DNA from: Bacteriovoracaceae bacterium
GTDB taxonomy: Bacteria; Bdellovibrionota; Bacteriovoracia; Bacteriovoracales; Bacteriovoracaceae
Reading direction: 5' to 3'
DNA length: 12,663 bases
Assembly: GCA_041586955.1 (NCBI GenBank)
Contig: JBFGZE010000088.1
Location: 1-12,663, forward strand
Part shown: piece after piece, positions 1-12,663 of the stretch
Numbering within the stretch: position 1 is the first letter of the stretch
How the letters are laid out: every line of letters begins with the position of its first letter
Position numbers and translations under genes: made by a program
Notes under the pieces: generated by a model
Database searches by the model: none
Told to the model about the DNA's origin: nothing
What the model saw: the letters and a program-made list of their open reading frames with translations, nothing else

Positions 1-1123
1 CATGCAGTATAGTAGAGTGGTCCCTTTGTAAATAACGGCCAATCGCTCCCAAGCTGTGATCGAAGTGACGATTGAGCCAATACATCAAAACCTGGCGAAT
101 AAGGGCCAAGGGCGCGAGGCGTCTTCGGCCCAAGATATCATCCTTAGAAAAGCGGCCATAGTCTGACAATAAATTGAGCACTTCTTCCATATTCTCTTCA
201 TTATTTGGCGCCGCTCTTTTCCCTTTAGAAATAGTGCGAGTAAACCACTTTTGCCAATAATCATCATCTTCTTGATTTAAAGATAAGGCCTGAGAATCCA
301 ATTGATGCATGAACTCTTTTAATTCAAAGGCATTATTAAAGGTACCAAAGTTAAGAAAGTCATTCTTTAGGGATTGATGATGAGGCGGTAATAAACCATC
401 CATCAAGCGCTCGGAAATTCCCTTATCCCACGAATAAATTTCCACTTGAGTTAAGCTTTTAAGACGCCCCTGAGTTCGTCCATCCATGTTTTGGTATTGT
501 CCAATTTTTTCATGAGATGAAAACAAAATACGCACATTATGGAGTTGGCAAAAGTCAATGAACTCACCGAGTCGCACTTCCTCTTTTGAAGAGAGGATTT
601 TCCAGACCAAACCATCCAGAATAATACCTTTTTTATCTTTTAAAGAATGAAATGGTCGATTCAATAATTCAGCGATGGCAAGAGAATCATTGGCGAAGCA
701 CCAATCTTTTTTCTGTTTTAGCTCCTGCCATTCAGCGAGGAGTAAATGGCTTTTTCCTACGCCACAAGGCCCAACAAGAAAAAGACTGCTGTCTTTTCCT
801 TTACCTGTAAACCACGAGCGGACCTTGATGGTGGCCTCTTTATTACTTCGGCCAACGATCCATTCTTTACGAGAGTCTAATGCTAACCTTGATGATTCAG
901 GAATAGCTCCAACGGGGGGAGTCATAAGACGCCGCTTACGGCGCCTTTTATCACAACGAGGGGGCACTCCTTGTGCTGGGGTGATGGACGTTAATAAATC
1001 GAATTCATGATTCATTAAAGACAGAAGGTTTAATTGCTCACTCGCTTCCTTCCGCCGTGTCGTTTTGGCAACCTTTTGCCGCTGAGAACTCTTCTCAACT
1101 ATAATTGAAGATACATCTAACAT
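1..1123 (-). CDS. Divergent DnaA-like protein (AAA+ domain III plus DNA-binding domain IV), 3'-partial (runs off left edge)
   Basis: Manual translation of the minus strand gives an open frame from ATG 1123 (alternative ATG 1015) to the window edge, 374 codons with no stop. Motifs: EWIVGRSNKEA (cf. DnaA NFVEGKSNQLA), LFLVGPCGVGKSHLL (Walker A, 749-772), IILDG (Walker B position, 611-625), DGRTQGRL (box VII), and DDILGRRR..LALIRQVLMYWLNRHFDHSLGAIGRYLQRDHSTILH (DnaA signature, cf. RDHTTVLH). An upstream in-frame TGA lies at 1157-1159; AAGGAAG/AAGG precedes ATG 1123. Confidence 0.88.
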   Translation of the reverse strand, partial: MLDVSSIIVEKSSQRQKVAKTTRRKEASEQLNLLSLMNHEFDLLTSITPAQGVPPRCDKRRRKRRLMTPPVGAIPESSRLALDSRKEWIVGRSNKEATIKVRSWFTGKGKDSSLFLVGPCGVGKSHLLLAEWQELKQKKDWCFANDSLAIAELLNRPFHSLKDKKGIILDGLVWKILSSKEEVRLGEFIDFCQLHNVRILFSSHEKIGQYQNMDGRTQGRLKSLTQVEIYSWDKGISERLMDGLLPPHHQSLKNDFLNFGTFNNAFELKEFMHQLDSQALSLNQEDDDYWQKWFTRTISKGKRAAPNNEENMEEVLNLLSDYGRFSKDDILGRRRLAPLALIRQVLMYWLNRHFDHSLGAIGRYLQRDHSTILH

Positions 1124-1167: not shown

Positions 1168-1195
1168 ATAATAATTACCAATTTCAATTGGTCAA
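1168..1195 (-). promoter_or_regulatory. Putative sigma70 promoter for the DnaA-like gene
   Basis: Minus strand TTGACC (1195-1190), 16 nt spacer, TATTAT (1173-1168), ending about 45 nt upstream of ATG 1123. Confidence 0.55.
1177..1192. promoter_or_regulatory. Palindromic operator-like site ACCAATT-N2-AATTGGT
   Basis: Perfect 7-bp inverted repeat overlapping the -35 element and spacer of the putative promoter; a further AATTGG half-site lies at 1213-1218. Confidence 0.45.
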
Positions 1196-1421: not shown

Positions 1422-1856
1422 ATGGAATCAAAAATAAATGCACCACGAGATATCCGCTTTTTGCTCATAGACGACATGAGTTTTTATTTATCATTTCTAA
1501 TTGATGGATTGAAAAACCTTGGATTTTGTGGCGAATTTCTAACGGCCCATAATGTTACCGAGTCCATCAAGGTAATCGAGGGCGAATATAAAAATAAACG
1601 ACAAATCGACTTTATTATATCAGACCTCAAGCTCCCAGATGCCCCAGGAACAATACTCTTACAAAAAGTCCGAAAGAATGCGATCCTTGCCAACATCCCT
1701 TTCCTCCTTATTACTGTTGAAGACAAATCAATGAACATCATTGACGCTTTTGAACATGGGGTGAGTAACTTTATGTTTAAACCCATCGATATAAAGATTT
1801 TGGGCGAGAAGATTCAATTTTGTTGGGAAAAACACCACTTGAATAAAAAAAAATAA
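1422..1856 (+). CDS. Single-domain response regulator (CheY-like receiver)
   Basis: FLLIDD acidic pocket, FIISDLKLPDAPG phosphoacceptor Asp, IPFLLIT, GVSNFMFKP; no output domain. Confidence 0.92.
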   Translation: MESKINAPRDIRFLLIDDMSFYLSFLIDGLKNLGFCGEFLTAHNVTESIKVIEGEYKNKRQIDFIISDLKLPDAPGTILLQKVRKNAILANIPFLLITVEDKSMNIIDAFEHGVSNFMFKPIDIKILGEKIQFCWEKHHLNKKK

Positions 1857-2324: not shown

Positions 2325-3077
2325 ATGAGAGTGAAGTGGTTGCCAATAATATTATGTTTTTTTTCTTTATACGCTCAAGATGAACAGGAAGGAGTACTCC
2401 TCAAGGTTCATAAATTAACGTATTTCCATCCCTACTCCTACACGACGTCCGATCAAGATGCCGGCAAGGAAGCCGAAGTCAAGTATCAAATTAGCCTAAA
2501 AACAGCTCTTATCGGCAACGGCGGCCCAGGCTCGTTATTCTTTGCCTATAGCCAAAAGAGTATATGGCAAATTTATAATGACGAAGCGTCAGCACCTTTC
2601 CGGGAAACCAATTATAACCCCGAAGTTTTTATGCGCTTTGGAAGTCCCTCCCTCTTTGCTGATTTTGGTTATTCCCATGAATCTAATGGCCAACAAGACC
2701 CAGAGTCGCGGGGATGGGATCAATTTTATCTCACAGGGCATCTTAAAACAGAGTATATTAATATTTACCTGCGGTCTTGGTACGTCTTTGCGGAAGATCA
2801 AAGTGTCCCTTCAATCGTACAAAAGAATACCTCTATTATTGACTATTATGGTTATGGCCAATTGGGAATTACGCTTAAGTTAGGGACTATGTTTATTCAT
2901 TATATGGCCCGGCATAATTTCAAGACACATTTTGGTGCCCACGAAAGTAATATTTCCTTCCCCCTTGGTAAGGGATTCTATCTTCACTTTCAGCATTTCA
3001 GTGGTTACGGGGATACTCTTATTGATTATAACCACTCCACCAATCGTTATGGGGTTGGACTTCTTCTCAATCGATAA
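2325..3077 (+). CDS. pldA: Outer-membrane phospholipase A (OMPLA/PLA1 family)
   Basis: Signal peptide; EVKYQISLK, FAYSQKSIWQIYN..SAPFRETNYNPE, catalytic HESNG..SRGW, GYGDTLIDYNH, C-terminal GVGLLLN; AAGG SD-like sequence upstream. Confidence 0.93.
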   Translation: MRVKWLPIILCFFSLYAQDEQEGVLLKVHKLTYFHPYSYTTSDQDAGKEAEVKYQISLKTALIGNGGPGSLFFAYSQKSIWQIYNDEASAPFRETNYNPEVFMRFGSPSLFADFGYSHESNGQQDPESRGWDQFYLTGHLKTEYINIYLRSWYVFAEDQSVPSIVQKNTSIIDYYGYGQLGITLKLGTMFIHYMARHNFKTHFGAHESNISFPLGKGFYLHFQHFSGYGDTLIDYNHSTNRYGVGLLLNR

Positions 3078-4088: not shown

Positions 4089-4760
4089 TTATATATCAAA
4101 TATTTCGGCCAATAGCCCGAAATTACTATTGGCCTCGGAGTTAAACATTTGAGCAAATACATTGAGGGCAACCACTGCATTTTTATCAGCATCGCCTTTT
4201 GAATAAGAGCGAAGTCGTTCTAATAGGCAGCGGTTGACAATTGCCAACGCTTTGTACTGCTCTAATAAATCTTTGATGTTACATTGCGCCTGCTCGCCAC
4301 CCTGTTTTAAAAATTGCTTCACAAGGTGTCCGCTGAGGGTGCGGAAATGAGTCTCTTGAATGGAGCTAAACGGCAAATGGAACCTGGCCAAAGGCCGTAA
4401 AAAACTAAAGTGGGGGCATTTACTGGTGGCCATAATAAGTCCCATCAGACTAAATAGACCCGTTTGTAAATCGGTATTTTTATAATAGACCCGCTCTTCA
4501 ACCTCGACAACGACCTTGGCCTCTTCATAGCTTAAGCTATTTTTAATTCTAGTGATCACATGGGACATATTGGCGGCAACTGGACAAGAAGGTGTATCGC
4601 CCTCATTTAATGGACAATTGGTACATTGATGATGCCCTAGCTTAGTCCAGGAAGGTAATTCCCCTGTCACATCTTTACCTGTCAAAGTCTCGTCATCAAT
4701 GATGACATCATAATTCCAAAACTTTTTATCAGCGAATACAAATTTATATCCAATTTTCAT
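4089..4760 (-). CDS. Cys-rich hypothetical protein (DUF6901-like)
   Basis: WTKLGHHQCTNCPL..CPVA, LQTGLFSLMGLIMATSKCPHFSFLRPLARFHLPF and DADKNAVVAL resemble DUF6901 from recollection; likely start ATG 4760 (MKIGYKF). Confidence 0.7.
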   Translation of the reverse strand: MKIGYKFVFADKKFWNYDVIIDDETLTGKDVTGELPSWTKLGHHQCTNCPLNEGDTPSCPVAANMSHVITRIKNSLSYEEAKVVVEVEERVYYKNTDLQTGLFSLMGLIMATSKCPHFSFLRPLARFHLPFSSIQETHFRTLSGHLVKQFLKQGGEQAQCNIKDLLEQYKALAIVNRCLLERLRSYSKGDADKNAVVALNVFAQMFNSEANSNFGLLAEIFDI

Positions 4761-4962
4761 ATTGATCTGATCGGTGCAAAACAAGAATATATTAAGAAAG
4801 ATAATTTTAAAAAATTTAACTGAGGTTTTTATACAGACTTTATTTAATGATACAGCAATAAGTATTTATCGCTCTCTAGTTATGGACTAGAACAGAAAGA
4901 ATTAAAGATAAACTGGGCGATAGAAAATGCTCGGTTCAAATGATAAAAACCAACAAAATCAA

Positions 4963-6351
4963 TTATGAATTGGCATTTTTAAAAGTCAGAACTTCTTCAA
5001 GTTCTCCCTCTTCTTTAAATGGTGGAAGAGATTTATGACTCACTTTAAAATATAATTTAAAACACGTTCCATGCTCATAAGCATCGGATTCTTTAACACG
5101 GCTTTCAACGATTATTTTGCCACCCATTAGGTCCATAATATGTTTAGCTATTGGCATACCAAAACCAGTTCCCGTTTCCCCTCTCGTCCCCTCTCTATTA
5201 GTCTTGGCCAATGGGTTAAATATATTTTGGAGAATAGTCTCAGGAATCCCAATACCGTGGTCACGAATACAAAGCTCTACCATTTCATCACTAAAGGTAC
5301 GCAGATCAAATACAATGACACCACCCTGGCAACTAAATTTAATCGCGTTATTTATAATATTTTGAATCACCTGGGTTTCGACCATATGACGGTTTCCCAT
5401 TATAGGTTGGACTCCAATATTAAAATTTTGGATGATTTTTAATTCCTTAACATCAAACATGTCCTTATTGTTTAGTAAAATCGAGTCCATCAATTGACCT
5501 AAATCAAAGGAATCCAATTTAAGATCCTTCTTTCCACTTTCAACAGACTCTAATGCTCTAGAGCTTTCGATCGTTTTTCCCATTTTAAGGGCATTTTTTT
5601 CCATCACTTTTAGGCGTTTTTCAAGATCTGTGAAATCGGCTTGCATAAATGATTTATAGGCCCTAGCAATAGACAATTTTATCACTGAGAGAGGAGTTGA
5701 GATATCATGTGATACTATTCGAAGAATATTTTGTTTCGATAAGGCCTTCTTATGAAGGATCTCATTTTTGAATTTATCCTTCCCCAAAAGAAGCAAAGTA
5801 AAGGCACTATTGAGGACGATCATTCCTGCGGTAACAAGAAATTGCGTCATAGTACGGGCCCTTTCATCTAAATAATTATTTAGCAATTGCAGATGGACAT
5901 CGAGGATAAAAACTGTGAACATCGACAAAATAGCAACGATGGACCATATCAACGCATGCTTCTTATTCGTTAAAACCCCTGCAATAGATGGTAAAATAGC
6001 AACCCAGACGAGGGTCGAATTATAAAACCCACCTGTTAATAAACAAAAATGTAATTGAAATAGGCCACCAGTAATAAGAATGACATAGCTCGCAAATACC
6101 AGTGAGCGCTTCCAGCGATAGGCCAAAGGTGCCGTTATATGGACACAAGCATAACCAAAGCCTAAGTACTTAATAGAAATATGATCAATAAAATAAAAGG
6201 AAAGAAACGCGTAGACCCACATCAATAGGCCTGTCACAATCGTTACCAAGAGAAAAAGGTGGACTCGATATGACATAATAGCATCTAGTTGATGTTTTTC
6301 ATCAATAAATTTATTATAAAAATTGTGGTAGAGCTTAATTATCCAATTCAT
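4963..6351 (-). CDS. Membrane-bound sensor histidine kinase (HisKA + HATPase_c)
   Basis: About 5-6 hydrophobic TM segments at the N-terminus; H-box VSHDISTPL, N-box NIINNAIKFS, G1 DHGIGI, F-box IFNP, G2 GTGFGMPIAK. Probable start ATG 6351 (ORF track extends to 6387). Confidence 0.93.
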   Translation of the reverse strand: MNWIIKLYHNFYNKFIDEKHQLDAIMSYRVHLFLLVTIVTGLLMWVYAFLSFYFIDHISIKYLGFGYACVHITAPLAYRWKRSLVFASYVILITGGLFQLHFCLLTGGFYNSTLVWVAILPSIAGVLTNKKHALIWSIVAILSMFTVFILDVHLQLLNNYLDERARTMTQFLVTAGMIVLNSAFTLLLLGKDKFKNEILHKKALSKQNILRIVSHDISTPLSVIKLSIARAYKSFMQADFTDLEKRLKVMEKNALKMGKTIESSRALESVESGKKDLKLDSFDLGQLMDSILLNNKDMFDVKELKIIQNFNIGVQPIMGNRHMVETQVIQNIINNAIKFSCQGGVIVFDLRTFSDEMVELCIRDHGIGIPETILQNIFNPLAKTNREGTRGETGTGFGMPIAKHIMDLMGGKIIVESRVKESDAYEHGTCFKLYFKVSHKSLPPFKEEGELEEVLTFKNANS

Positions 6352-6598
6352 TTCTACAATTAGCAAAGCAAAAAGAAAGTATCCCAAACGGAATATATAA
6401 GCTCTCTTCAGCGATTACTTCCTTATCAAAACAACAAAAACTTTGTTAGTAAAAAATCTAAAAAACGGAAGAGGAGGGACTGATACGATCTCTGGATAAA
6501 ACTTTTCCTGGCCTTACTTCCACTTTCAAAAAATCCTTTTTCTTACAAAGATTGTTCGGCTTCAAGGTAGCTAATAATAAATTAATTTTTCTTAATGC

Positions 6599-7334: not shown

Positions 7335-7928
7335 TTAAAGGCCTTCTTTTATCGATTGGTTGGCCCAAATTTTTTTCAAGTATTCATCTCTACCTGAATT
7401 CAAGCGATAAAATTTATAAGTACGGGGATTTTTACGGTAATAATCCTGATGATATCCCTCTGCCAAATAAAAAGTCGTCGCCTCTCGGAGGACAGTTTGA
7501 ATCGGATTTTTAAAAATATTGCTCTTTTGCAATTTTTTAAGCGAATTAAGAGCAACGGCCTTTTGCTTCTCACCCAGATAAAAAATTGCAGTGGTATACT
7601 GATACCCGCGATCAACGAATTGACCGCCTCCATCGGTTGGATCAATATTGCGCCAAAAAACTGTTAATAATTGATCATAAGAAACCTTTTGGGGATCGAA
7701 GGTAACCCGAACTGCCTCTAGGTGTTGTGTCTGCCCAGAGGACACTTGTTGGTAGGTAGGGTTTTTTTGTGGGCCACCGATATAACCCACTTCTGTTTTA
7801 TTGACTCCATTAACTCCGTCAAAGGGTGGCTCCATACACCAAAAACAGCCCCCAGCAAATATCGCAGTATCAGCAAAAACACGGGGCATTAATAAGATAA
7901 AGGAAAAGACAACTGTCGCTAATTTCAT
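7335..7928 (-). CDS. msrA: Peptide-methionine (S)-S-oxide reductase MsrA, exported
   Basis: FAGGCFWCME active-site motif, GYIGG..NPTYQQV, DPTDGGGQFVDRGYQYTTAIF, FYLAEGYHQDYY; N-terminal signal peptide MKLATVVFSFILLMPRVFA; GAGG SD before ATG 7928. Confidence 0.96.
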   Translation of the reverse strand: MKLATVVFSFILLMPRVFADTAIFAGGCFWCMEPPFDGVNGVNKTEVGYIGGPQKNPTYQQVSSGQTQHLEAVRVTFDPQKVSYDQLLTVFWRNIDPTDGGGQFVDRGYQYTTAIFYLGEKQKAVALNSLKKLQKSNIFKNPIQTVLREATTFYLAEGYHQDYYRKNPRTYKFYRLNSGRDEYLKKIWANQSIKEGL

Positions 7929-8032
7929 GAAAACCTCGTTCATTTAATATGACAATAATAAGTGACGCTCAATCCACTTTCGTGACGAGGGCAATGATGA
8001 CAAAAATCCGTGATCCTGACTGGCGCAGACGA

Positions 8033-8543: not shown

Positions 8544-11500
8544 TTAAAATAAATTAAGCAAACCTGTACATTTATGGCACATCCCCTTAAGAATATAGGT
8601 ATATGGAACAGTTGGTGTTGAATTGTGATCCCGCTGCACCCTGAATGTAAAGGTATCTGTGGACTGAAGGTAAGTAATTGAATCAGTAAGAATTGACCCA
8701 TTGATGGCAGAGTCATTCATCTCTTGAATTGTATTTGCCTGAAGAGTTCCATCATTATTTCGATAAAACCATAATTTATATTTTTTGGTACCGCCGTGAG
8801 CTCCTACACCATTTGTACGATGACTGGTGATTTCAAGTTCAAGATTAATCATTGCGCCAGCGGGAATATCAACTTGAAAAACATCAGTTAAAACATTGTC
8901 AGTAATGGTTTTTGTATTAATTAAAGTAATGGCCTTTGAAACATCGTCATTACCTCTAATTGCAACATCCCCCTTAACGTCTAATTTTGCAGTAGGGGCC
9001 GTCGTCCCAATCCCGACATTACCATTTGTATCAATTCTCATTCTTTCATTTCTAGTATTGCTACCAGTTGAGAAACTTACACCATCATAAGCATTAACAG
9101 AAAGGCCATCTGAACTTGTATTTGTGGTTGAATGATCATAGGCGAGAATCGAAAGATTATATTTATTAGTATCTGTAAATCCTTCCCTAAAAAAGATCCC
9201 GCTTTCGTCGCCTAGAGCAAAGGCGTCGACAAGGGCGTCCCCTTCTATATGAAGTTTTTCAACCGGAGATGTTGTCCCAACTCCAACGTTACCGTTATGG
9301 TCAACCATCGTTCCTCCAGATAACTCATCTGGAATGATCATGACATAGTCGATGTACTTATTCCCAGCGTAACCAGCGTTACCAAAAACCATATATACAT
9401 TGTCAGTTTCGGCCCAATCAGCAACAAAACTACCTCCATATAGCGTTTGGTAAGAATTAGTGACAGAAGCTGTGATATCTTTCGTGCCGAGGGGGTAACT
9501 AGCGGTAGTATTATTATAAATGGAGAAGCGAAAACCAGTGGCGCCAGCATCTTTTTTTGCTCTGATATAAACATGATACTTACGCCCTTTATTAATAAAG
9601 CCTTCAACGCTATTTCGAAGATAGATGTTCCCACCCCATCCAATTACAAATAGTCCCGCCTGTCCATAAGAAGCATCAGGGTCGGCAACATAACTCATAT
9701 TGCCCGAGGCAGTTATTCTGTCATTTTGGCCAGGATTTGCGATCAATACGGGAAGATTTGAATTGAAACTCAATCCGGATGAGGCAATAATATCGCCTGT
9801 CACTTTTATATTTCCATCCACTTCAAGCTTTTCTGTAGGGCTTATCGTCCCAACCCCTACCTCTCCAGTATCAGCGACAGTAATTCCTTTTGTTAAATCT
9901 GCTATGGTGAAAGCTCCTGGATCTAGGCCAGCGGTATTAACATTTATTCCTCTACCTCGTATTTGAACTTGCTGTCCCCAATTTCGAGCAATCGTTTTTT
10001 CAATATAAAATTCAGTTACGCCTGCATTTCCAGTTTGGTTTGTATATTTAAGATCTAAACCGATAATGCCCTTCGTCCCATCGAGAGGAGTAATCCTCGT
10101 ACTATTTGTTCCACTAGAATTTTTAATTTCTACCAGTATTCTTTTAGATACTCTGTAATCACCCTCATATATCTCAATTACCGCATGCGCGATGGAGCCA
10201 TTATAAAGTGTATTGGTTTTAAAAAGAAAGGTATCAGTATTAACGGCAAGAGGACTCCAGTAGTAGTTCTTGTAGAGAAGACCCTCGTGCTGGAAATCTC
10301 CAGCGACATCAAGGTTTGTAGTTGGTGAAAGCTTACCTACTCCCATCTTTCCATTTGCATCTATAGCTATTCTATCTAGTCCAGCATTTTGATCATATAG
10401 TCTAAATGGATAATTGCTATCTGTTATTAACCTTACCCAATTTGTTGATTGCTTAAAGTCTACACCGGCCTGACCTATCCCCGAATGCTCAAACATACCT
10501 TTGGCAGAAGTTGGATCAACAACATGAAGCGGAGCAGAGGGAGCTGTTGTTCCGACCCCGATATTTCCGGTAGGGCCAATTACCATTTGGGCAACGTCAT
10601 TCTCATTAAAAGTATAAAGGTTGGCATTACTAACAGATCCACCAGATGAAGTGGCGTTAAATTGCATAATTGCATCATTGGCCTGATAGATATCATTTAA
10701 GGAGTTGGCCGTAATTCTTCCTCCAATTCCTCGATCTCCACTTATATTTGATGAGCCAGTAAAGTCAATCTTCCCAATCTGATGGTTAGCTCCTAATGAA
10801 TCAATTCCTAAAGAGACGCCGCCAAATGTGTCAGCACTGATCTTTATAAGATCTGCAAATTCACTAGATGTATGAACTTCAAGAGTTGTGTCCGGCGAAC
10901 TTGTTCCAATCCCAATATTTCCATCTTTATCTATTCGCATTCGTTCAGTAGGAATGGCATTATTGGTCGCTGAGGTATTAAAGCCGATACTGGCATCAGA
11001 CGCCAATCCGCGAAGGATGATGGATGAAGCCGCCGCTCCCGTATCTAAGAAAACGCCATCACTTTCTCTTCTGTTTGATCCAAGCAAAATCCCCTGATTA
11101 GAGGGTGATGTATCAAAAGCAGATAAAAAGCCTCCCATTGTTCCATTATTGGCCGTAACCTCAATACCATCAATTGAAGAGGATGAGTTGACATCAAAAC
11201 GGTAACTTGGAGACGTCGTCCCAATCCCAACTTTTCCATCTTTAATAACTAAAGTATCATCATAAGCGGTACTAGAGCTTGTCGTGCCAAAACTCAAAAA
11301 ATTACTTGTATTATCCCATTTGACAAGTGATTTATTATTAGTGTCCTCTCCAAGAGCGAGTACTGCTGGTGCCGCTCCATTTCCTATGGCCAGGGCAAGT
11401 TCCGTTGACCCATAACCAAGATCAGCACCCATCTTCAAATTACCAGAAGTGTCGATTTCTGCTTTCGTTGTTCCGGCCGTTTTAAATGTAATAGATTCGC

Positions 11501-12663
11501 TTCCTGAGTTATCTGAATCTGATTCGACGATAGTAGTACCAGTTGTCGTTGTGCTCACACCCGAGGGCGTGACTTTGAAAACTTCATTTCCTGACCCATC
11601 TTTTACGAGGAAGAGATTTGCACCACTTTCTTCGTAACCAATAATCCCATTTGCTGTAGTTAAAGCATTTGTGGTGAGGGTTAAATTAAGTGCGTCCGCA
11701 ATAGCTTGAATGGTATAATTATTGCCATCAAGTTTAATCACTTGCCCAACACTAAGTTCTGTATCAAAAGCGGTTCCTGTACCAACGACAGCAGCACTCG
11801 CGCTGGTAATATCGATTGTGCCAGTAAGAGCAGCAGTGAGATCACCATTAATTTGTAGTTTTGAACTTGAAGCAGTGGTCCCTATTCCAACATTTCCATT
11901 AGAATTAATTCTAAGATGGTGAGTATCACTTCCCCCTGCCGAAAGCCCAATATGCCCGGTAACGTTATTATTTTGTATCACAAGAGAATTTGCTGTATTG
12001 ATGATTTGGTTGGGATCTATTGCGATTTTAGAGCTCCCATCATCAACAAGGAGGCCAGCTTGAGAGTAATCTGCAACACTTGGAAAACCAATCGTCCCAG
12101 TGATAAAAGATGTTAATTGAGCTGTAGGCGATGTCGTGCCAATCCCGACCTTCCCCGTTGCATCGATGGTCATTCTTTCTAGCCCATTAGTGGAAACACC
12201 AATCTCGTTGACAGTGTCCGAAAAGATGCCCGTATCGAGGTCGGTTCCAAACGTTATAGAGGGAGTCGCTGCAGTCCCATCTGCATGTTCAAGAGGTCCT
12301 GTCATAGTGACAGAGCCATCTTTCATAAAGTCGCCACCAGAGTCATTATCTGTATCACAAGCAAATCCACCGCTGCCATCAGAAGATAAAATCTGACCAA
12401 CCATACAACCTGCAGCGATGCCACTCATTTTAGTATCAGTGATGGCCTGGGCGGCCACTTTCGCTGTCACGACACCACCATCTTTAACGCGCAGATCATT
12501 TGATCCATCTATTTCTATTGTTGAATTATCAACTTCCACTTGGAGAATGGCATCGCCACTTAAAGCGCCTCCAGAAAGGCCTGAAGTAGCACCTGTTTGG
12601 ACAGATTCCATATCGGCGGCAGCTGATGGCCAACCATTACTAATCGTTTTACAATTTGCACCC
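8544..12663 (-). CDS. Large mosaic tail-fibre-like adhesin (trimeric fibre, MAT-like), 5'-partial
   Basis: Frame remains open upstream of 12611 to the window edge (GANCKTISNGWPSAAD-MESV...), giving >1370 aa. Contains CMVGQILSSDGSGGFAC, DGTAATPSITFGTDLDTGIF and nine G[NKE][VIM]G[IV]G[TK] repeats typical of phage-like fibre shafts. Confidence 0.88.
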   Translation of the reverse strand, partial: GANCKTISNGWPSAAADMESVQTGATSGLSGGALSGDAILQVEVDNSTIEIDGSNDLRVKDGGVVTAKVAAQAITDTKMSGIAAGCMVGQILSSDGSGGFACDTDNDSGGDFMKDGSVTMTGPLEHADGTAATPSITFGTDLDTGIFSDTVNEIGVSTNGLERMTIDATGKVGIGTTSPTAQLTSFITGTIGFPSVADYSQAGLLVDDGSSKIAIDPNQIINTANSLVIQNNNVTGHIGLSAGGSDTHHLRINSNGNVGIGTTASSSKLQINGDLTAALTGTIDITSASAAVVGTGTAFDTELSVGQVIKLDGNNYTIQAIADALNLTLTTNALTTANGIIGYEESGANLFLVKDGSGNEVFKVTPSGVSTTTTGTTIVESDSDNSGSESITFKTAGTTKAEIDTSGNLKMGADLGYGSTELALAIGNGAAPAVLALGEDTNNKSLVKWDNTSNFLSFGTTSSSTAYDDTLVIKDGKVGIGTTSPSYRFDVNSSSSIDGIEVTANNGTMGGFLSAFDTSPSNQGILLGSNRRESDGVFLDTGAAASSIILRGLASDASIGFNTSATNNAIPTERMRIDKDGNIGIGTSSPDTTLEVHTSSEFADLIKISADTFGGVSLGIDSLGANHQIGKIDFTGSSNISGDRGIGGRITANSLNDIYQANDAIMQFNATSSGGSVSNANLYTFNENDVAQMVIGPTGNIGVGTTAPSAPLHVVDPTSAKGMFEHSGIGQAGVDFKQSTNWVRLITDSNYPFRLYDQNAGLDRIAIDANGKMGVGKLSPTTNLDVAGDFQHEGLLYKNYYWSPLAVNTDTFLFKTNTLYNGSIAHAVIEIYEGDYRVSKRILVEIKNSSGTNSTRITPLDGTKGIIGLDLKYTNQTGNAGVTEFYIEKTIARNWGQQVQIRGRGINVNTAGLDPGAFTIADLTKGITVADTGEVGVGTISPTEKLEVDGNIKVTGDIIASSGLSFNSNLPVLIANPGQNDRITASGNMSYVADPDASYGQAGLFVIGWGGNIYLRNSVEGFINKGRKYHVYIRAKKDAGATGFRFSIYNNTTASYPLGTKDITASVTNSYQTLYGGSFVADWAETDNVYMVFGNAGYAGNKYIDYVMIIPDELSGGTMVDHNGNVGVGTTSPVEKLHIEGDALVDAFALGDESGIFFREGFTDTNKYNLSILAYDHSTTNTSSDGLSVNAYDGVSFSTGSNTRNERMRIDTNGNVGIGTTAPTAKLDVKGDVAIRGNDDVSKAITLINTKTITDNVLTDVFQVDIPAGAMINLELEITSHRTNGVGAHGGTKKYKLWFYRNNDGTLQANTIQEMNDSAINGSILTDSITYLQSTDTFTFRVQRDHNSTPTVPYTYILKGMCHKCTGLLNLF
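8995..12160 (-). repeat. Nine dispersed protein-level spacer repeats (consensus approx. ERMxIDxxGNVGIGTTSPxxKLxVxG)
   Basis: Copies near 12140 (GKVGIGTTSP), 11885 (GNVGIGTTAS), 11225 (GKVGIGTTSP), 10910 (GNIGIGTSSP), 10555 (GNIGVGTTAP), 10340 (GKMGVGKLSP), 9855 (GEVGVGTISP), 9280 (GNVGVGTTSP) and 9010 (GNVGIGTTAP); the DNA sequence is diverged between copies. Confidence 0.85.

Follow-up and report, generated by a model that had tools for sequence, protein, structure and literature searches.

The DnaA-like gene at the window edge

The window analyzed here is the whole 12,663-nucleotide (nt) stretch of contig JBFGZE010000088.1 (assembly GCA_041586955.1), from a Bacteriovoracaceae bacterium. Its first gene, on the minus strand, is an open reading frame (ORF) encoding 374 amino acids (aa) that resemble domains III and IV of the replication initiator DnaA. 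This protein, designated P0001, appears to belong to a family of DnaA-derived paralogs in which a motif of beta-clamp-binding type has been joined to a DNA-binding domain, and may regulate replication. Other P-numbers refer to library proteins and L-numbers to contig loci from a genome scan. The gene and its parts are as follows, all on the minus strand.

2..1123: DnaA-paralog ORF, 374 aa, intact frame, ATG at 1123..1121, 3' end past the window edge
1168..1195: sigma-70-like promoter match TTGACC-16-TATTAT about 45 nt 5' of the ATG, a consensus match only
869..1123: N-terminal region in place of DnaA domains I-II, predicted to be disordered (residues 1-85; predicted local distance difference test score, pLDDT, below 50)
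1022..1036: QLNLL, a beta-clamp-binding-like short linear motif (residues 30-34; Q30 and L31 invariant in the family)
929..949: KRRRKRR basic stretch (residues 59-65), with similar basic stretches after the QL motif in relatives
224..865: about residues 87-300, an AAA+ module like domain III of DnaA (from the PDB phmmer search and the fold)
749..772: Walker A GPCGVGKS, intact (residues 118-125)
608..625: residues 167-172, IILDGL, the Walker B motif, with its first Asp present and Gly in place of the second acid
509..529: sensor 1 region ILFSSHE (residues 199-205), His at the E. coli D269 position
461..484: box VII DGRTQGRL (residues 214-221), R216 and R220 aligning with E. coli R281 and R285
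314..334: sensor 2 region NAFELKE (residues 264-270), Phe at the E. coli R334 position
2..187: residues 313-374, the helix-turn-helix of DnaA domain IV, truncated at the window edge and bearing the RRR basic loop, RQ and DHSTILH

No stop codon precedes the window edge, and comparison with relatives places about 30 C-terminal residues beyond it. If the ORF was absent from the supplied track, as the sequence-only reading stated, truncation at the edge would account for this trivially. The frame is open over 374 codons in a window of 42% G+C, with codon usage as near to that of the pooled neighbours (Kullback-Leibler divergence 0.053) as that of any window gene. An AGG-containing stretch precedes the ATG, and a consensus scan of the region holding the promoter match found nine sigma-70-like matches where 5.5 are expected.

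Within Pfam, P0001 matched Bac_DnaA_C over residues 313-374 (E 3.6e-13, 49.8 bits, cut-off 31.5), fell under the cut-off of the Bac_DnaA ATPase model (16.9 bits, cut-off 23) and had no match to DnaA_N, the model for domain I. The NCBIfam models for DnaA (TIGR00362) and Hda (TIGR03420) gave 62.5 bits against a cut-off of 343.9 and 30.1 bits against a cut-off of 194.8, respectively. A phmmer search of the PDB aligned residues 87-374 with domains III-IV of Aquifex DnaA (E 8.6e-5). The AlphaFold2 model, built with the 41-row family alignment described below, has a mean pLDDT of 73.2, with values above 90 over approximately residues 90-240 (the AAA+ core) and below 50 over residues 1-85. Its best fold matches in the PDB are the DnaA entries 1l8q (E 1e-11), 2hcb, 8btg and 3r8f, while the Hda entries 3sc3 and 3bos rank only 10-11. 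The domain IV match, the PDB alignment and the DnaA-type fold bear out a likeness to DnaA domains III-IV that an earlier, sequence-only reading of the window had seen by eye.

Residues are given in E. coli numbering, calibrated on a 467-aa Citrobacter DnaA (locus L034). This protein agrees with the residues named in the excerpted text of PMC5742627 at positions 178, 211, 227, 235, 236, 243, 245, 269, 281, 285, 290, 334, 399, 407, 408, 433-435 and 439. In domain III, P0001 keeps K178, D235, R281 and R285 and is changed at D236 (Gly), K243 (Ser), R245 (Lys), D269 (His) and R334 (Phe). In domain IV, R399, R407, Q408, D433, H434 and H439 are kept and T435 is Ser. The Walker A to Walker B spacing is 46, versus 57 in canonical DnaA, and the Walker B Gly codon, GGT, is one base away from GAT. 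On this numbering the sequence-only reading was right that Walker A and both box VII arginines are intact (its RTQGR does lie at 464-478), that the DNA-contact residues of domain IV are preserved, and that three catalytic positions, D236, D269 and R334, have been replaced.

A family of short DnaA-like proteins

A word-index protein search with P0001 found no homolog. In an exhaustive HMMER scan of 1.84 billion representatives there were 247 matches at E<=1e-3, a single one at E<=1e-10 (the best, E 3.2e-11 at 26% identity) and none at E<=1e-30, while a genome-contig scan gave 14 pattern matches, none of them a relative. Seven short proteins of 376-403 aa among the matches listed (P0002, P0003, P0005, P0011, P0012, P0032 and P0037) have the architecture of P0001. 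In a profile search the list of candidates was taken up by canonical DnaAs, with P0032 as the sole family member on it. A search with P0037 delimited the group far more sharply: 35 clusters matched at E<=2.4e-72, followed by a gap before canonical DnaAs began at E>=9.4e-28, with 124 proteins at E<=1e-10 among 3865 candidates. The family holds at least 42 clusters, and residue tables cover 41 rows, the partial sequence P0303 having been omitted.

Source names within the family include 'DnaA/Hda family protein [Halobacteriovorax sp. GB3]', 'hypothetical protein A9Q84_12345 [Halobacteriovorax marinus]', two labelled 'Bacteriovorax sp.' and 'MAG: DnaA/Hda family protein [Bacteriovoracaceae bacterium]', where MAG denotes a metagenome-assembled genome. 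Proteins of this kind are thus already in databases under the generic name 'DnaA/Hda family protein', and the earlier description of P0001 as a hidden paralog does not hold for the kind, given a family of at least 42 clusters with that NCBI label. The link to predators that had been drawn from the window alone was sound, as the named relatives come from predatory Bacteriovorax and Halobacteriovorax. Family members score below both curated cut-offs (146-222 bits for DnaA against 343.9, 45-85 for Hda against 194.8), which accounts for the neutral name given by NCBI. A literature search, with subscription-only papers outside its scope, found no paper on this family.

Family members have no domain I. 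Their N-terminus is disordered and bears a motif of QLDLLSF type together with a basic stretch, after which come a DnaA-type AAA+ module and a domain IV helix-turn-helix. The N-terminal motif, QLDLLSF[VI] in the family, reads QLNLLSL in P0001 and QLKLFES in P0002 and is set in unconserved, disordered surroundings. A QLx[LF][LFM] pattern occurs within the first 60 residues of 41 of the 42 family members, and the tighter QLxL[LFM] is found in none of 347 other stored proteins, mostly canonical DnaAs. The Lys/Arg-rich stretch after the QL motif is likewise a family character. The N-terminus of P0001 had been described earlier as basic and low in complexity, in place of domain I. Domain I is indeed missing and KRRRKRR is present at residues 59-65, but that description was incomplete in that it overlooked the conserved QLxLL motif.

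Within the AAA+ module, the spacing from the Walker A Lys to the Walker B Asp has a family median of 45 (range 45-58, n=42), compared with 57 in 205 of 295 canonical DnaAs. The missing 11-12 residues or so map to the second helix of the initiator-specific pair that bears the H motif. The B motif is missing throughout the family, with the R245 position never occupied by Arg. Walker A is intact in 41/41 and the first Walker B acid is Asp in 40 and Glu in one. The sensor 1 Asp (D269) is retained in at most one of 41 members, and at sensor 2 the place of R334 is taken by Tyr in 39 members and by Phe in two. The R285 position is always basic, being Lys in 30 members and Arg in 11, P0001 among the latter. 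Contacts of domain IV are well kept (R399 in 40/41, R407 in 41/41, D433 in 40/41 and H434 in 41/41), although most members have H408 and Y439 where P0001 has the canonical Gln and His.

The second Walker B Asp is present in 40 of the 41 members and P0001 is the sole exception. This alters how its 'inactivating' changes should be read: the loss of both sensors is ancestral to the family and not peculiar to P0001, and the Asp-to-Gly change in Walker B is private to it. The sequence-only reading had held that catalytic residues retained in relatives would imply simple local decay; such retention was found for the second Walker B Asp only, in 40 of the 40 other members.

The named family members P0273, P0298, P0276, P0287 and P0032 have the same architecture and length as P0001, with the QL motif, the basic stretch and domain IV, and share with it an aromatic sensor 2 residue, the missing sensor 1 Asp and the short Walker A-B spacing. 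P0001 differs from the family in its low identity to any member (18-24%), in Phe instead of Tyr at sensor 2, in Gly at D236 and in its canonical-type Q408 and H439.

DnaA paralogs without domain I are widespread and mostly unstudied. Short DnaA-like proteins of 319-373 aa consisting of domains III and IV form many Atlas clusters, most commonly in Planctomycetota and Armatimonadota. The short DnaA-like matches P0042, P0021, P0067 and P0019 get far higher scores from the canonical model and are therefore of a different kind. In P0151, a protein of 326 aa on another deep branch, QLSFF at residue 8 is followed by a basic stretch, by an AAA+ module whose Walker B has DD, and by a Bac_DnaA_C domain. 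By this design a clamp-type motif combined with domain IV may exist beyond the Bacteriovorax-type family.

Placement of P0001 relative to the family

A hidden Markov model (HMM) of the family built without P0001 scores it at 125.7 bits in an alignment that starts at residue 14 and covers the QL motif; with P0002 also left out the score is 113.0 bits. An HMM of canonical DnaA (60 matches) gives 120.7 bits with an alignment from residue 87. Because these scores are nearly equal, the assignment of P0001 to the family rests on shared characters and not on overall similarity.

A quick tree of 52 rows was made from 17 of the 41 family rows, 24 of the 80 locus DnaAs described below, 10 other matches and P0001. 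Here 33 canonical or canonical-like rows fall on one side (Shimodaira-Hasegawa-like approximate likelihood ratio test, SH-aLRT, 93) and 16 family rows form one clade (SH-aLRT 86), while P0001, P0002 and P0151 are long branches between the two with unsettled placement. When P0001 and the 17 family rows were forced into one clade, the log likelihood was 16.99 above that of the free search, with a P value of 0.79 in the approximately unbiased test. The one-clade tree neither rejects nor proves membership of P0001. By shared derived characters we file P0001 as a probable deep, fast-evolving member of a DnaA-derived paralog family of Bacteriovoracaceae/Halobacteriovoraceae, in which it is an extreme, further degenerated outlier of the QLDLL type.

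Such degeneration raises the question of whether the gene is a decaying or relic copy without function, its ATPase-site changes and long branch being due to relaxed selection. The end branch of 5.11 changes per column would fit this, as would the position of P0001 as the one member of 41 without the second Walker B acid, a Bac_DnaA score under the Pfam cut-off, and the lack of any close homolog, its own sequence being absent from the protein libraries. Yet a frame of 374 codons has stayed open in 42% G+C DNA with codon usage like that of its neighbours, the AAA+ core folds with confidence, and a promoter-like site and an AGG-containing stretch stand 5' of the ATG. Walker A, the R281 and R285 equivalents, the domain IV contact residues and the QL motif have moreover been kept selectively. 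We therefore consider a relic improbable.

Canonical DnaA and the question of initiation

A second genome-contig scan, made with an alignment, was dominated by canonical DnaA. Of its 599 stretches 597 proved to be relatives, of which 80 were kept, and all nine loci that were read through carry canonical DnaA. Among these 80 of the 597 relatives, dnaN lies directly downstream of the canonical dnaA in 70. Locus L001, from a Bacteriovorax MAG, has the order yidC, dnaA, dnaN, recF, gyrB, and L013, from a Halobacteriovorax MAG, has dnaA with dnaN. Both canonical DnaAs possess a long N-terminal region, a TSD sensor 1 and an N[IV]RELEG sensor 2.

The two genes (L001 3539-5254 and L013 2318-3880) encode 571 and 520 aa. 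Their products have His at Q408 and Ser at T435, in common with the short paralog family, which hints at a lineage-specific reading of the DnaA box and fits an origin of the paralogs within that lineage. The tree does not place these canonical DnaAs as sisters of the short family.

DnaA domain I binds the helicase and DiaA. P0001 does without this domain, and its initiator-specific motif is reduced in length; it has no B motif, no Asp at sensor 1 and no Arg at sensor 2, and its TIGR00362 score is low. Together these features support P0001 being a paralog-type DnaA and not a plausible housekeeping initiator, as far as its sequence can tell; the sequence-only reading had come to the same view. 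In the excerpted text of PMC5742627, the H and B motifs bind the single-stranded duplex unwinding element, and R334 is required for intrinsic ATPase activity, for DnaA's regulatory inactivation (RIDA) as well as for datA-dependent DnaA-ATP hydrolysis (DDAH), but not for initiation complexes.

It could be supposed instead that P0001 is the sole, highly diverged DnaA of its organism and does initiate. The gene downstream of it lies outside the window, so that a dnaN neighbour is possible there; the sensor 2 Arg is dispensable for initiation complexes in the account just cited; and short DnaA-like proteins without domain I occur in other phyla. We regard this as highly improbable in view of the missing domain I and B motif, the shortened initiator-specific motif, the Walker B Asp-to-Gly change and a DnaA score of 62.5 bits where the cut-off is 343.9. 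Furthermore, MAGs of the family's genera carry a canonical dnaA-dnaN pair, the gene upstream of P0001 is CheY-like where L001 has yidC, and DnaA boxes are lacking nearby. The box TTATCCACA, with up to one mismatch, occurs three times in the whole window against 3.87 expected and not at all in the intergenic segment 1124-1421, in agreement with the earlier statement that no boxes lie upstream. WTCCACA has one match in the window against 3.61 expected.

DnaA-like initiators are also found on some replicons, and one weak match in a plasmid collection would be in keeping with P0001 being the initiator of a plasmid, phage or other mobile element. That match (E 8e-5), however, is to a dnaA of chromosomal type carried by a record of 592 kb, a phage search gave no match, and the genes around P0001 have housekeeping or envelope functions and share its codon usage. 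On the plasmid-collection and phage searches we rejected such an origin, which we hold to be exceedingly improbable.

The N-terminal motif and the beta clamp

The clamp-binding-like QL motif, which in P0001 lies in register with the invariant QL of the family, is the strongest functional clue on P0001. For comparison, the excerpted text of PMC5397184 gives the clamp-binding motif of E. coli Hda as 6-QLSLPL-11. Residues 1-66 of P0001, with the family alignment, were folded together with a stand-in clamp, the DnaN of the Halobacteriovorax MAG at L013 (32-row alignment). Scores of 0.56, 0.55 and 0.46 were obtained (median 0.55), against 0.00 for the best of three controls, with at least 66% contact agreement among the three runs and a partner pLDDT of at least 44. 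Of 157 solved complexes 116 reach the pass mark used, as do 2 of 215 mismatched pairs; only 18 of the 157, together with both of these mismatches, do so with a score of 0.60 or less.

An alternative that makes no use of the clamp would have P0001 act as a DnaA-box-type transcription factor or origin-occluding protein, with the QLxLL motif serving another partner or self-association and the AAA+ module acting as a scaffold for oligomerisation or nucleotide sensing. Domain IV is the best conserved part of P0001, the clamp fold is only a weak pass, the divergent neighbour gene encodes a response regulator, and DnaA itself works as a transcription factor in the excerpted text of PMC3193534. We nevertheless judge this unlikely, given that the QL motif fits the clamp-binding consensus and is N-terminal in a disordered region, as the excerpt describes for Hda, that it recurs in 41 of 42 family members with the tighter pattern in 0 of 347 other proteins, and that all controls of the complex fold scored 0.00.

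Proposed role and points weighed against it

The predators in which the family occurs must hold replication off in the attack phase and then run many rounds inside the prey. The reading we prefer, tentatively and with a confidence that falls a little short of an even chance, is that P0001, from the DnaA-derived paralog family, regulates DnaA or oriC as a non-hydrolysing protein that binds DnaA boxes and is tethered to the replisome. As P0001 lacks domain I and the B motif and has a shortened helix pair for the H motif, it would be unable to load helicase or open DNA and hence would not initiate, by the motif roles in the excerpted literature. It would be expected to bind nucleotide, given its intact Walker A and the retained first Asp of Walker B, and to hydrolyse it poorly or not at all, since the whole family does without the Asp of sensor 1 and the Arg of sensor 2 and P0001 has additionally lost the second Walker B acid; the residue roles are again those of the excerpts. 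The result would be an AAA+ protein that is static or works like a switch, in which it would be comparable to Hda in its ADP-bound form.

Domain IV would bring this protein to DnaA-box-like DNA and the N-terminal QL motif would hook it to the beta clamp. P0001 might then act where replisomes meet DnaA boxes, docking on DnaA protomers by its box VII face (R216, R220). The outcome could be a triggered, RIDA-like hydrolysis of DnaA-ATP, or else capping, titration or occlusion of DnaA at oriC, and either would restrain re-initiation while forks are active. As most relatives have Lys where DnaA has R285, the common mode of the family is more probably capping, occlusion or titration. The Arg finger claimed by the sequence-only reading is thus present in P0001, as R220, yet its donation is not a conserved property, the residue being Lys in 30 of 41 members.

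Several points weigh against this role. There is no enrichment of DnaA boxes in the window, and the changes of Q408 to His and H439 to Tyr in most family members mean that their DNA specificity may differ from the DnaA box. The Lys in 30 of 41 members also speaks against an Hda-like Arg finger being conserved in the family. P0001 scores about equally with the family HMM and the canonical DnaA HMM, is only 18-24% identical to any family member and sits on a very long end branch. The clamp fold, as a weak pass with the DnaN of another organism, lends weak support to a predicted contact and does not count as evidence by itself, and the fold model may be recalling likeness in this case, as clamp-peptide complexes are abundant among solved structures. 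The canonical dnaA-dnaN loci come from other MAGs of the family's genera and not from the genome of the window, and the literature searched holds no experimental data on any family member. On the whole, what the sequence-only reading had observed was confirmed, while its interpretation was supported in part.

If the proposed role is true, a clamp-hooked DnaA paralog could govern the switch from a non-replicating attack phase to multi-origin filamentous growth, and the union of a clamp-type motif and an intact domain IV with an AAA+ site that does not hydrolyse would be a new way of tying origin control to replication in progress. The interest lies mostly in this family-level combination of clamp motif and domain IV and less in the 'inactivated ATPase' of P0001.

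Neighbouring genes

Other genes of the window include those listed below. The upstream neighbour is a CheY-like receiver, as had been noted earlier, and is transcribed divergently from the DnaA paralog.

1422-1856, plus strand: stand-alone CheY-like receiver, divergent from the DnaA paralog
2325-3077, plus strand: outer-membrane phospholipase A1 (196 bits)
4089-4784, minus strand: DUF6901 protein
4963-6387, minus strand: membrane histidine kinase, 3 kb away from and not adjacent to the CheY-like receiver
7335-7943, minus strand: MsrA with N-terminal hydrophobic leader
8544-12611, minus strand: 1355-aa ORF with nine G-x-[IVM]-G-[IV]-G-[TK] motifs (e.g. GNVGIGT) along its length

The phospholipase A1, MsrA and DUF6901 genes point to a diderm host; an Atlas look-up of the DUF6901 protein and NCBIfam on all the neighbours yielded no signal of lineage. 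The 1355-aa ORF has no Pfam or NCBIfam match and, from its repeated motifs, looks like a large repetitive surface or fibre-like protein.

Comparison with known replication regulators

P0001 resembles canonical DnaA in the AAA+ fold of domain III, the contact residues of domain IV, Walker A and the equivalents of R281 and R285, and canonical DnaAs are its best PDB matches by both sequence and fold. Unlike P0001, canonical DnaA has domains I-II, about 11-12 more residues between Walker A and Walker B, the B motif, Asp at sensor 1, Arg at sensor 2 and a second acid in Walker B. The N-terminal QLxLL motif of P0001 is a further difference.

The known agents of RIDA, the pathway in which DnaA is inactivated in a clamp-coupled way, are Hda and HdaA, and from both of these the DNA-binding domain has been lost. 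The excerpted text of PMC5397184 places Walker A of E. coli Hda at residues 50-57 and Walker B at 98-103, ending in Asn103, with sensor 1 Asp137, Arg finger R153, sensor 2 R202 and a preference for ADP. As far as that excerpt describes Hda, the family is like it in the type and position of an N-terminal clamp-type motif on a flexible segment, in the short Walker A-B spacing and in having no domain I. P0001 in particular shares a Walker B without the second acid (Asn103 in E. coli Hda, Gly in P0001) and a basic box VII residue at the Arg-finger position, R220, which aligns with DnaA R285. In contrast to the family, Hda has no domain IV and, in the same excerpt, keeps Asp137 and Arg202. The relative P0037 gives 70.8 bits against domain III of B. 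subtilis DnaA alone and 40.9 bits against Hda. Orthology to Hda was ruled out by the presence of domain IV, by scores under the cut-off and by an AAA+ module nearer to that of DnaA.

Bacillus YabA restrains initiation through contacts with DnaA as well as with the beta clamp. P0001 is proposed here to do similar work; YabA is unrelated in fold, is not AAA+ and has no DnaA-box-binding domain. It is possible, if on the doubtful side, that Bacteriovorax-type predators and the organism of the window possess a third kind of DnaA-derived regulator: a clamp-recruited, hydrolysis-dead DnaA look-alike that would stand at DnaA boxes and inactivate or cap DnaA, and that would have arisen convergently, outside the Hda lineage.

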